From assembly GCA_013329045.1 (NCBI GenBank), contig DUKZ01000002.1:30662-94661 (forward strand): 64,000 nucleotides of DNA, read 5' to 3'. The stretch is from Candidatus Woesearchaeota archaeon. Lineage in GTDB: Archaea > Nanobdellota > Nanobdellia > Woesearchaeales > UBA9989. Position numbers and translations under genes: made by a program. The notes under the pieces were generated by a model. The model had not been told where the DNA came from and made no database searches. It saw nothing but the letters and a program-made list of their open reading frames with translations. Positions 32,492-35,602 of the stretch are shown here, one piece after another; position 1 is the stretch's first letter, and each line of letters starts with the position of its first letter.

Positions 32492-33811
32492 ATGAAACCA
32501 TCTCCTGGAGATACCATAAAAATTGCAACAACAGAGGCAACGTTCGAGGGTATCCTTCTCCAGCGTCCCGCATTATTCGAGCCAGGGTTCATTGTTCTCA
32601 AACTGGATAACGGGTACAATATTGGCATTGAAGAAAAGAAGATCAAGAAGATCGAAACCATCAAACAATATGAAATGCCCATCATTAAAAGGAAAGAGTT
32701 CAAGCACAATCCAAAGCTGCCAACTGTTGCTATCCTTTCTACCGGCGGCACTATTTCTTCCCGTATTGATTACAAGACAGGTGGTGTGATTGCCGATTAC
32801 ACCGCTGATGACTTCATCCAGATGTGTCCAGAGCTCGCAGAGGTTGCGAATATGAAGGCAAAAAAAGTGATGGGCATTATGTCCGAAGATTTACTGCCAG
32901 AAGACTGGAAAAAAATGGCGGAATTCATTGCAGAAGAACTGAATAATAAAGACATTGCAGGTGTTGTAGTAACCCATGGAACAGACACCATGCATTATAC
33001 CGCAGCAGCTCTTCATTTCTTCCTGAAAAACATCAACAAGCCTGTCATCATCACCGGCTCCCAAAGAAGCATCGACAGGGGAAGCACCGATGCATTCATG
33101 AACCTGATTTGCAGCGTGACCGCAGCTGCCCGGTTTGACGGTGCAGTCGTCGCCACCTGCCTGCATGGATCAACAAATGATGATTATTGCATCCTTAACA
33201 GGGGTGGGCGGGTCAGAAAAATGCACACCGCAAGGAGGGATGCATTCCAGAGTATCGATGAGCTTCCTCTAGCAAAAGTGTTTCCTGGTGGCAGCATTGA
33301 AGTAATTAACACTGCATACAAAAAAAGAGCTGATGTAAAGGTAGAGGTTGAGGGGGCATTCGAAAAAAAGATTGCTATCATTGAAGTATTTCCAGGAATG
33401 GATCCAGGAGTCATCAACTTTTATCTTGACAAAGGGTTCAAGGGCATCATTCTTAATGCAACTGCTCTAGGCCACGTCCCAACTGTTTTTCCCGAATATT
33501 CCTTAATGGACGCGCTCCAGTATGCAAGAGAGAAAAAAGTCCCGGTAATTGTTTCCTCCCAGACAATTAATGGCAGGGTGCACCCTTTCGTTTATACAAA
33601 TCTAAGAAAACTCTCCATCGAACGTGACTGCATCTTTGTCGAGGATATGCTCCCGGAAGTGGCATATGTAAAACTAGGATGGGTGCTTGCAAAGACACAA
33701 GACACAAAGAAAGTAAAAGAACTAATGCTCACCAATTATATTGGAGAAATAACTGAGCGCTCTGACCCAAGAGCATACCCGTTTGACCATGGAATTGCCA
33801 AAAAACATTGA
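32492..33811 (+). CDS. gatD: Glu-tRNA(Gln) amidotransferase subunit D (GatD), asparaginase-like
   Basis: Asparaginase threonine motif ILSTGGTISS, VVTHGTDTM; N-terminal GD..I......EGIL; archaea-specific; ORF-track start is TTG at 32477, first ATG at 32492. Confidence 0.8.
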   Translation: MKPSPGDTIKIATTEATFEGILLQRPALFEPGFIVLKLDNGYNIGIEEKKIKKIETIKQYEMPIIKRKEFKHNPKLPTVAILSTGGTISSRIDYKTGGVIADYTADDFIQMCPELAEVANMKAKKVMGIMSEDLLPEDWKKMAEFIAEELNNKDIAGVVVTHGTDTMHYTAAALHFFLKNINKPVIITGSQRSIDRGSTDAFMNLICSVTAAARFDGAVVATCLHGSTNDDYCILNRGGRVRKMHTARRDAFQSIDELPLAKVFPGGSIEVINTAYKKRADVKVEVEGAFEKKIAIIEVFPGMDPGVINFYLDKGFKGIILNATALGHVPTVFPEYSLMDALQYAREKKVPVIVSSQTINGRVHPFVYTNLRKLSIERDCIFVEDMLPEVAYVKLGWVLAKTQDTKKVKELMLTNYIGEITERSDPRAYPFDHGIAKKH

Positions 33812-34193
33812 GGAAAATGTATTCCAGGTGGAAAAGCCGTGGGGAAATTTCAGGCAATTTTGTCTCAACCAGCAGGCAACAGTAAAGATTCTCACCGTCA
33901 ACCCGCAGGGGGTCCTCAGCCTCCAAGATCATGAAAAGCGAGATGAGCTCTGGCATTTCCTTGATGATAACGCAAAAGTTATCCTGGGAGACAAGACCAT
34001 CGAGCCAAGAGCCGGCAGCGAATTGTTCATCCCGAAGCGAACAAAGCATCGATTGATAGCAAAAGACAGCACAACAAAGGTTCTTGAAGTGTCTTTTGGC
34101 CACTTCGACGAAAACGACATCAGAAGATATGATGATCAATACGGAAGGATAAGAAATAAGGAAGGACAAGATAAAGCAGGAAGAATACAATGA
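33789..34193 (+). CDS. Cupin-domain protein (mannose-6-phosphate isomerase-type cupin 2)
   Basis: EKPWGNF...VKILTVNPQGVLSLQDHEKRDELWHFL...AGSELFIPKRTKHRL cupin beta-barrel pattern; overlaps gatD end and ATGA-overlaps gatE start. Confidence 0.6.
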   Translation: MELPKNIEENVFQVEKPWGNFRQFCLNQQATVKILTVNPQGVLSLQDHEKRDELWHFLDDNAKVILGDKTIEPRAGSELFIPKRTKHRLIAKDSTTKVLEVSFGHFDENDIRRYDDQYGRIRNKEGQDKAGRIQ

Positions 34194-35602
34194 ACTACGA
34201 AGAGCTTGGCTTGAAGTGCGGACTTGAAATTCATCAGCAATTAGACACAAGAAAACTCTTTTGCAAATGCAAAAGCATTGTTCATGATGAGAATCCTGAT
34301 ATTTTCTTCACAAGAAAGTTACGGCCAGTGGCCGGAGAAACAGGAGAGATTGACCAGGCAGCAGCGCATGAGATGGAAAAGGGAAAAATCATGAAGTATG
34401 AGGCATGCTCCACATCTTCATGCCTCGTTGAAATGGACGAGGAGCCTCCTGGACAGATAAATGAGGAGGCAGTTGAGATCTCCCTCCAAATCGCAAAGAT
34501 GCTCCATATGAGGATCGTCGATGAGATCCAGGTGATGAGAAAAACAGTTATTGACGGGTCAAACGTCGGCGGTTTCCAAAGAACAGCCCTGATCGCGATG
34601 GACGGCTTCTTAGAGACATCAAAAGGAAAGGTTGCCGTGCCAACGCTTTGCCTTGAAGAGGAAGCGGCAAAGAAGATAAAAGAAGACGAGAAAGCAATCA
34701 CCTACCGCCTTGACCGCTTGGGAGTCCCATTGGTGGAAATCGCCACTGACGCGTCAATGAATGACCCGGAGCACGCAAAGGAAACAGCATCATTGATCGG
34801 GATGATCCTCAGGTCAACAAAAAGGGTCAAGAGAGGCATTGGCACTATTCGCCAGGATGTCAACGTCTCAATCAAGGGGAGTGCAAGAGTCGAGATCAAG
34901 GGATTCCAGGATTTGAGAAACATGCCTCTCGTGATCGACACGGAGATCAGGAGGCTGCAAAAGCTGGAAAAGCATGAGCCCGAAGTAAGGAAAGTAAACC
35001 CTGATAACACCACTTCATTCTTGAGGCCGATGCCCGGCGCTGCACGGATGTATCCAGAGACGGATGTCCTTCCTTTTAAGGTAAACCTTGAGAAGATCAC
35101 TGTTCCAAAGCTCTTGACAGAGCAAGTAAAGGAGCTGGAAAAGAAATGGAAAATTAATGATGATGCCGCAAAAGAGCTTTTAGACCTTGACCTGGTCGAT
35201 CAGGCAGAGTCTTTCATAGCAAAAAACAAGAATTTGGAGCCAAAATATATTGTGGAAGTCATGCTCGCCCTCCCAAAAGAGATAAAGAAGCGCTATAAGC
35301 TGGACGCAGAAAAGCTCACAGAAAAAGAATTTTCTGAGGTTCTCTTGCTGATCAACAAAGAAGAAGTTGTCAGGGAAGCAGCAATTGAGCTTCTCGCCTC
35401 CTTCCTCCAGGGAAAATCCATCAGCGAAGAAGCAAAAAAGTACGCCCCCATCAATGACAAGATCCTTTTGGAAGAGATAAAAAAGATCGTCCAGAAAAAC
35501 CCTGGTAAGCCCATAGGCGCGCTGATGGGCATCGCCATGAAGGAGCTGAGGGGAAAAGTTGACGGGAAAAAAGTAAATGAGTTCTTGAACAAGCTCATCT
35601 GA
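34190..35602 (+). CDS. gatE: GatE-like Glu-tRNA(Gln) amidotransferase subunit (GatB/GatE family), unusually short (470 aa)
   Basis: LGLKCGLEIHQQLDTRKLFCKC, CLVEMDEEPP, ARMYPETD, C-terminal GALMGIAMKELRGKVDGKKV tail domain; adjacent to gatD; length closer to GatB than to typical about 620-aa GatE. Confidence 0.6.
   Translation: MNYEELGLKCGLEIHQQLDTRKLFCKCKSIVHDENPDIFFTRKLRPVAGETGEIDQAAAHEMEKGKIMKYEACSTSSCLVEMDEEPPGQINEEAVEISLQIAKMLHMRIVDEIQVMRKTVIDGSNVGGFQRTALIAMDGFLETSKGKVAVPTLCLEEEAAKKIKEDEKAITYRLDRLGVPLVEIATDASMNDPEHAKETASLIGMILRSTKRVKRGIGTIRQDVNVSIKGSARVEIKGFQDLRNMPLVIDTEIRRLQKLEKHEPEVRKVNPDNTTSFLRPMPGAARMYPETDVLPFKVNLEKITVPKLLTEQVKELEKKWKINDDAAKELLDLDLVDQAESFIAKNKNLEPKYIVEVMLALPKEIKKRYKLDAEKLTEKEFSEVLLLINKEEVVREAAIELLASFLQGKSISEEAKKYAPINDKILLEEIKKIVQKNPGKPIGALMGIAMKELRGKVDGKKVNEFLNKLI

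Follow-up and report, generated by a model that had tools for sequence, protein, structure and literature searches.

A 64,000-nt stretch of DNA (hereafter, the window) from a groundwater Woesearchaeota (DPANN) archaeon in all likelihood encodes a functional GatDE amidotransferase whose GatE subunit has secondarily lost the GAD insertion domain, a loss that we infer to have altered docking. The genes concerned form a head-to-tail, overlapping trio on the plus strand, and all three open reading frames lie where the original prediction had placed them: gatD (32492–33811; 439 aa from its ATG), a cupin gene (33789–34193, in an open reading frame from 33783; 134 aa from its ATG) and a short form of gatE (34190–35602; 470 aa). 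Gene calls in four public assemblies start gatD at the ATG at 32492; counted from a TTG further upstream, at 32477, its product would measure 444 aa. As read off the sequence, gatD and the cupin gene overlap by 23 nt in different frames (33789–33811), and the cupin stop codon overlaps the gatE start codon in an ATGA (34190–34193), with a purine-rich AGGAAG stretch just before.

The short GatE falls 149–163 aa below the two GatEs of solved structure (619 and 633 aa), close to the deficit of about 150 aa originally predicted, and both GatE motifs named in that prediction (CLVEMDEEPP and RMYPETD) are found in it. In phmmer alignments, residues 1–259 match residues 1–259 of Methanothermobacter thermautotrophicus GatE (2d6f_C) with no gaps of note, and residues 253–468 match residues 385–613. 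The alignment with GatE, part of the check that had been proposed, thus skips M. thermautotrophicus residues 260–385, and from this two-stretch match it follows that the missing part is the AspRS-like insertion domain, whose absence had been predicted. Pfam finds no GAD domain (PF02938) in the short GatE, and among its relatives the domain is present in long forms and absent from short ones. Across 224 sequences, the segment corresponding to window residues 262 to 266 measures either 3–11 or 84–171 residues, and only three of the long values fall below 125; it is 5 residues in the window GatE, compared to a mode of ∼140. The deletion junction itself (34964–34987; residues ∼259–266, EKHEPEV) is where helix 242–258 runs straight into strand 265–269, whereas canonical GatE carries a domain of ∼135 residues there. 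An AlphaFold2 model of the short GatE has a pLDDT of 87.9 overall and of 92–94 over the junction. Judged from sequence, then, what the short GatE lacks is exactly the AspRS-like (GAD) insertion, M. thermautotrophicus residues ∼260–385. Because this insertion is absent, the protein represents a domain-loss variant of GatE rather than a canonical member.

The remainder of the protein appears complete. The Mg2+ ligands of M. thermautotrophicus GatE are H15, E157 and E184 (PMC2330236); these are matched by H15, E157 and E183 of the short GatE, which are invariant in 25 short GatEs (91 invariant columns overall). The basic loop RSTKRVKRGIGTIRQD is conserved in the alignment to solved GatEs. The YqeY tail is present, although the region of its GXXAXGX motif is ∼7 residues shorter and reads PGKPIGA, a shortening also seen in long forms labelled Woesearchaeota or Pacearchaeota. 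By these comparisons, the catalytic residues are intact, and the helical domain and, its shortened motif region aside, the YqeY tail appear so too. In mean pairwise identity the cradle reaches 53%, the helical and tail domains reach 26%, and the insertion, where it is present, 36%. Since the insertion is moderately conserved in the proteins that retain it, its loss is unlikely to be neutral everywhere.

GatD had been called typical, and so it proved. It scores 490 bits against the NCBIfam GatD model (cut-off 310), contains the Pfam domains GatD_N (PF18195), Asparaginase (PF00710) and Asparaginase_C (PF17763), and aligns over its full length with Pyrococcus abyssi GatD (1zq1_A; 404 bits), with the TGGTI and HGTDT motifs in register. 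A compensating change in GatD was ruled out, as no indel or residue tracks the form of GatE among 49 GatDs.

The short form is not peculiar to this locus; it is a widespread, recurrent trait of DPANN archaea. The 120 closest homologues of the window GatE are short without exception; among the 80 best loci in GTDB the short form accounts for 64, and the labels of short-form loci include Woesearchaeota, Pacearchaeota, Nanoarchaeota and Aenigmatarchaeota. In 55 of 81 distinct loci, gatD precedes gatE on the same strand; in the window it does so immediately.

Two readings would deny that the 470-aa gene is a genuine GatE. In length and domain order the protein does resemble GatB: GatB chains in the PDB have 466–483 aa, and Pfam detects GatB_N (PF02934, 181 bits) and GatB_Yqey (PF02637, 38 bits). 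The original prediction had accordingly left room for either a minimal GatDE or an archaeal gatB that happens to sit beside gatD. Model scores, tree and structure matches support the former. The protein reaches 532.5 bits with PRK04028 (the NCBIfam GatE model; cut-off 456), again matching in two stretches, and 472.4 bits with TIGR00134 (cut-off 319.55), compared to 133.4 bits with the best GatB model, far under its cut-off of 338. Genuine GatBs, which occur together with short GatE in some related Pacearchaeota genomes, score 409–456 bits with the GatB models. The proposed phylogeny, run as neighbour-joining with true GatB as the outgroup, places the protein in the GatE clade, which includes all short forms and has 100% bootstrap support, and not in the GatB clade. 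Sequence scores to the solved GatEs are 349 and 348 bits, the top Foldseek matches of the predicted structure are the GatE structures 1zq1_C and 2d6f, and the model is 32–34% identical to GatE structures, compared to 18–24% for GatB structures. These data refute the gatB assignment, to which we attach next to no probability. Short length, and nothing else, could also point to a pseudogene, an assembly artefact or one half of a split gene whose insertion is encoded separately. Against this, at least 22 contigs, drawn from independent assemblies (NCBI, JGI, ENA and Logan), encode the identical 470-aa protein, which hence is no assembly artefact; more than 100 orthologues share its architecture, with the 91 invariant columns noted above; and its predicted fold is confident and compact. 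An HMM built from 133 insertion domains, which gives 137–182 bits on 16 long forms, was run on all six frames of the window and on locus flanks. Neither the window (best E 2.2) nor the DNA flanking 64 short-form loci gave a match, so a separate GAD open reading frame was rejected, and we regard a broken or split gene as very improbable. GatB-length GatEs in DPANN genomes should thus be annotated as genuine, neither as truncated proteins nor as GatB.

Whether the short form is derived or ancestral bears on the word loss. One could suppose that it is the pre-insertion form, kept in deep DPANN lineages, and that the GAD domain was a later acquisition of canonical GatE: the domain order of short forms is that of GatB, their junction aligns with the GatB junction, and three short forms (P0368, P0293 and P0382) branch beside the GatB outgroup in the neighbour-joining tree of 224 sequences. 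However, these basal positions are weakly supported (67 and 14) and accompany a very long outgroup branch, in a tree whose deep-backbone bootstraps are 0–45, and by identity P0293 clusters with a group of short forms to which the long form P0320 is the nearest relative. Elsewhere in the tree, short and long forms interleave. Short P0290 and long P0369 are a sister pair (bootstrap 100, 61.5% identity), as are short P0254 and long L078 (bootstrap 83, 61.8% identity), and long P0279 lies inside an otherwise short Pacearchaeota clade (100% support, 64–68% identity) and shares the gatB/gatD/gatE synteny of the short Pacearchaeota loci. Some short forms are in fact nearer to a long form (61–68% identity) than to other short groups (51–53%), and junction sequences vary from clade to clade. 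Sequence comparison therefore strongly suggests repeated secondary loss rather than an ancestral state, and retention of a pre-insertion form seems decidedly unlikely. P0279 might have re-acquired the domain, but no donor for its insertion was identified, identity to any sampled insertion being at most 46%. Gene conversion from the adjacent gatB was considered as a source of the short junction and rejected, as the junctions show no resemblance apart from the fold that they share.

The insertion has been described as specific to GatE and as setting it apart from GatB (PMC2943598, PMC2330236). Modelling led to the proposals that it forms one wall of the pocket that docks non-discriminating (ND) GluRS in the absence of tRNA and that it sterically blocks ND-AspRS, and it has been proposed to explain why GatDE is the archaeal Glu-specific amidotransferase (PMC2943598, PMC2330236). 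The chemistry of the short GatDE would be expected to remain canonical. A non-discriminating GluRS would make Glu-tRNA(Gln); the GatE cradle would bind the acceptor end and phosphorylate the γ-carboxyl, which would then be amidated with ammonia freed by the asparaginase-like GatD. Recognition of the D-loop would fall to the YqeY tail, and that of the A1-U72 pair to the basic loop of the cradle. In line with the docking models, we infer that short GatDE forms no tRNA-independent complex with GluRS; the enzyme would work without such a complex, more like GatCAB. Loss of the GAD domain, probably in several separate events, would fit the protein reduction seen in DPANN archaea.

A more far-reaching view is that loss of the domain changed the job of the enzyme, with short GatDE also, or instead, amidating Asp-tRNA(Asn) and so replacing GatCAB or AsnRS where genomes are reduced. 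The attribution of ND-AspRS exclusion to the insertion in the modelling literature speaks for it. On the other side, at least some Pacearchaeota with short GatE keep a true GatB beside gatD; the tail deletion occurs in long forms too; and in a complete Pacearchaeota genome the tRNA(Gln) encoded beside short gatE retains A1-U72, compared to G1-C72 in the tRNA(Glu) there. We consider a switch in substrate unlikely. Much the same doubt attaches to a fuller version, in which GAD ties GatDE to ND-GluRS and bars ND-AspRS, and insertion-less DPANN GatDEs gave up the transamidosome and, where GatCAB and AsnRS are lacking, serve both Gln-tRNA and Asn-tRNA with a dual specificity like that of GatCAB. 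The 64-kb window (20 open reading frames scanned) contains no tRNA(Gln), GluRS, AsnRS or gatCAB; its sole tRNA is a tRNA-Arg. A functional, Glu-directed GatDE with altered docking remains the reading we prefer.

The cupin gene does lie between the two subunit genes, as predicted, overlapping both. Its product matches PF01050 with 58.9 bits (cut-off 23.6) and keeps all 27 family-invariant columns, including H48, E53 and H87. Its homologues are proteins of 110–125 aa from CPR bacteria and DPANN archaea (best non-self match, 58% identity). A bifunctional GMP/PMI enzyme was rejected as its identity (54 bits versus a cut-off of 373), and by its family match the product is a stand-alone protein of the type II phosphomannose isomerase C-terminal family. 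It is 46–58% identical to ten aligned stand-alone PF01050 cupins and differs from them in ∼12 additional aa at its C-terminus, which reach into the start of gatE. None of 80 related loci carries a cupin homologue at a distance of up to 5 kb from gatE. The position between gatD and gatE is therefore seen in this species only, and the idea that it forms a conserved third component was rejected. The predicted gene order of the operon holds, although the cupin gene is not conserved alongside the two subunit genes. In 29 of 55 loci, gatD and gatE are separated by 400 nt or more, and among the unrelated genes located in the spacer are ones for Fic, epimerase, uridine kinase, PIN, HTH and CYTH proteins. 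The cupin gene is an incidental insertion and no part of the amidotransferase. A small gene of a sugar-isomerase family would have landed in a spacer that often takes in foreign genes, and it may be co-transcribed with gatD and gatE yet stand outside the enzyme.

In the searchable literature we found no report of a natural GatE without the insertion and no experiment in which the insertion was deleted; the docking-model paper describes none. Whole archaeal lineages appear to translate with a GatE that lacks this domain, lost, it seems, repeatedly. To our knowledge, archaea have no GlnRS. If Gln-tRNA(Gln) is still made through short GatDE alone, the insertion is dispensable for an essential reaction. 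The short and long sister pairs, at 61–68% identity, are ready material for probing what it does.

Compared with the canonical GatDEs of M. thermautotrophicus (2D6F) and P. abyssi (1ZQ1), the window enzyme shares an asparaginase-type GatD with GatD_N, the linkage of gatD to gatE, and a GatE made up of a cradle with Mg2+ ligands, a basic loop facing A1-U72, a helical domain and a YqeY tail. It differs in the whole insertion domain, which canonical GatE has at M. thermautotrophicus residues ∼260–385, and in the ∼7 residues missing from the tail at GXXAXGX. GatB of GatCAB resembles the short GatE in its similar length, its cradle, helical domain and YqeY tail, and its lack of the insertion, and GatB structures give TM-scores of 0.6–0.7. 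At ∼20% identity, however, GatB is a paralogue and not an orthologue, and its partners are GatA and GatC, whereas that of the short GatE is GatD.

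Three open reading frames occupy the forward strand where the original prediction placed them: gatD (32492-33811; 439 aa from its ATG start, as called in four public assemblies), a cupin gene (33789-34193; 134 aa) and gatE (34190-35602; 470 aa). As read from the sequence, the gatD stop lies 23 nt into the start region of the cupin ORF, and the cupin stop and gatE start have ATGA in common, preceded by a purine-rich stretch. The cupin is probably carried on one transcript with gatD and gatE. Ending 34 nt 5' of the gatD ATG is a 109-aa Lys/Ala-rich ORF (32128-32457, forward strand) that has a single hydrophobic segment, lacks a Pfam match and is among the gene calls of 4/4 assemblies of the species. 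The opposite strand holds a likely toxin-antitoxin pair directly 3' of gatE (35604-36181), made up of a 70-aa MazE/AbrB-type antitoxin (PF04014) and a 124-aa partner that resembles a PIN-domain toxin, yet has no Pfam hit. For five large ORFs of the window (434-907 aa; 5475-7868, 22679-25402, 32-1474, 10209-11609 and 7865-9169), Pfam gave no match at E ≤ 1e-4.

GatD is of the canonical type: the NCBIfam GatD model gives it 490 bits (cut-off 310), and it contains GatD_N and both asparaginase domains and aligns over its full length with Pyrococcus abyssi GatD, TGGTI and HGTDT motifs included. For its 470-aa partner, two readings had been offered, a minimal GatDE or an archaeal GatB beside gatD, and the model scores favour the former: 532 and 472 bits on the GatE equivalogs, both above cut-off, versus 133 bits on the best GatB model (cut-off 338), on which grounds we reject GatB identity. 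When true GatB served as outgroup in a neighbour-joining tree, all GatEs, every short form (i.e. lacking the AspRS-like insertion) among them, grouped together at 100% bootstrap. Moreover, five Pacearchaeota loci with a short GatE have a true GatB gene adjoining gatD (409-456 bits on NCBIfam GatB models for the three checked), and therefore short GatE is not another name for GatB. Short GatEs do not vary at the residues matching the Mg2+ ligands of Methanothermobacter thermautotrophicus GatE (His15, Glu157 and Glu184; PMC2330236), nor at 88 further columns, and the basic loop opposite the first tRNA base pair is kept in the window GatE. The YqeY tail is shorter by ~7 residues (35480-35520; residues ~431-444), a gap also found in L067, L075, L079, L082, L084 and P0279 and shared by short and long GatEs labelled Woesearchaeota or Pacearchaeota.

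Alignment with the solved M. thermautotrophicus GatE pairs residues 1-259 of the two proteins, and window residues 253-468 with 385-613, so that ~125 residues corresponding to the AspRS-like insertion are skipped. Pfam matched GatB_N and GatB_Yqey in the window GatE and found no GAD domain, which is present in long relatives; the predicted absence of the insertion thus holds. A confident AlphaFold2 model based on 25 short GatEs (pLDDT 87.9 overall, 92-94 over the junction) predicts that strand 265-269 comes straight after helix 242-258, and its top PDB matches are GatE (32-34% identity) followed by GatB (~20%). In an alignment of 224 sequences, either 3-11 or 84-171 residues lie between window positions 262 and 266, with only three of the long values below 125, making insertion presence or absence effectively a binary character. 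The junction of the short forms falls at the same position as that of GatB. No indel or residue of GatD was seen to track the form of GatE.

The short form is not an assembly artefact, since an identical protein, labelled Candidatus Woesearchaeota, is encoded on at least 22 contigs from groundwater samples (NCBI, JGI, ENA and Logan assemblies). A split gene encoding the insertion separately is likewise not supported, because an HMM made from 133 insertion domains, which gives 137-182 bits on 16 long GatEs, matched neither the window in any of its six frames (best E 2.2) nor the flanking DNA of short-form loci.

The best 120 homologues (90% clustering) are without exception 465-500 aa long and devoid of GAD; those with a name carry the labels Woesearchaeota, Nanoarchaeota, Nanoarchaeia or Pacearchaeota. 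At 50% identity, the best 150 cluster representatives include ~23 short and 121 long forms. Among GTDB species representatives, 80 loci were recovered, of which 64 have a short and 16 a long GatE, the short also under the labels Aenigmatarchaeota and Parvarchaeum and the long labelled Woesearchaeota, Nanoarchaeota, Micrarchaeota, Altarchaeum and Methanobacteriota. NCBI labels are unreliable for metagenome-assembled genomes, and some of those given here are clearly in error.

The relationships of short to long forms favour several separate deletions from long ancestors over a short form that is ancestral. In neighbour-joining trees, where local relationships are informative and deep backbone order is not settled, short P0290 and long P0369 are sisters (bootstrap 100, identity 61.5%), as are short P0254 and the long form at L078 (bootstrap 83, identity 61.8%), and the group L058/L061/P0300 has long P0320 as its nearest relative; the short groups of P0290, P0254 and L058/L061/P0300 each share only ~49-53% identity with the remaining short groups. 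The long GatE of locus L085 (P0279; 618 aa, 6001-7857), whose GAD domain is weak (29.7 bits), falls inside an otherwise all-short Pacearchaeota clade at 100% bootstrap, is 64-68% identical to the clade's short forms and shares their synteny, gatB divergent from gatD and gatE downstream. Either the domain was lost many times independently, or P0279 re-acquired it. Junction sequences also vary from clade to clade: P0254 keeps an ALEGVPEET stretch resembling the C-terminal boundary of long forms, and one Pacearchaeota subclade (L037-L039, L041, L050, L054, L060, L064 and L071) has a conserved Cys pair, RQxEC[VI]-x-N-x-x-C-K-x-EV, which could form a disulfide or metal-stabilised hairpin. The sister pairs, P0279 and these clade-specific junctions all count against short GatE as the ancestral architecture, which is unlikely. 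Among long forms, the insertion has a mean pairwise identity of 36%, compared with 53% in the cradle and 26% in the helical and tail domains; being moderately conserved, the insertion is evidently functional where kept.

The cupin was predicted to sit between the subunits, and its position and overlaps with both genes agree; its role as a conserved component does not stand, as a homologue occurs near gatE in 0 of the 80 related loci, and we reject it as part of the amidotransferase. The distance between gatD and gatE ranges from overlap up to 3.7 kb, with a spacer of at least 400 nt carrying unrelated genes in 29 of 55 loci. Thus, the spacer is permissive and the cupin is one of many genes inserted there. 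Its family comprises stand-alone cupins (110-125 aa), common in CPR bacteria and DPANN and related to the C-terminal domain of type II phosphomannose isomerase (PMI); every family-invariant residue is present, and the closest relative, self matches aside, shares 58% identity. Lying 14 kb upstream of the cupin is a phosphoglucomutase/phosphomannomutase gene (18286-19758, forward strand), and the two non-adjacent genes could act in one mannose pathway. Two Woesearchaeota-labelled loci have an asparaginase-like fragment ORF (PF00710; 166-200 aa stop-to-stop) between gatD and gatE (L010 3904-4503, L069 4011-4508). At six mostly Pacearchaeota-labelled loci (L037, L053, L056, L060, L062 and L085), gatB is divergent beside gatD (e.g. 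L062 258-1622 and L085 437-1915, both minus strand) with gatE 0.5-3 kb downstream, and hence genes of two amidotransferases are clustered.

The short gatE of the complete Pacearchaeota genome CP061211 (L036) has genes for tRNA(Gln)(CUG) (3471-3543) and tRNA(Glu)(CUC) (4714-4786) no more than 1.6 kb upstream. The tRNA(Gln) keeps A1-U72 and A73; its neighbour tRNA(Glu) has G1-C72. Their D-loops are equally long (9 nt), and the difference lies at the first base pair. At the acceptor end, the two tRNAs match the reported identity elements for GatDE.

We found no prior description of a GatE lacking the insertion in the searchable full-text literature, and databases simply name the short proteins GatE; the variant is relevant to research on tRNA-dependent amidotransferases and on DPANN genome reduction. 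If these genomes have no route to Gln-tRNA(Gln) other than GatDE, the insertion is dispensable for an essential function. Modelling has proposed that ND-GluRS docks free of tRNA (KD 40-100 nM in M. thermautotrophicus) in a pocket made by the insertion together with the cradle domain, that the insertion sterically keeps out ND-AspRS, and that its gain turned GatDE into a Glu-specific enzyme (PMC2943598, PMC2330236); the paper on GluRS docking reports no deletion mutant. A shift in specificity toward Asp-tRNA(Asn) is possible but unsupported. Short-form GatDE would be expected to catalyse the canonical three reactions and, since the insertion is proposed to make part of the docking pocket, may work without a pre-formed GluRS complex, as suggested for GatCAB.
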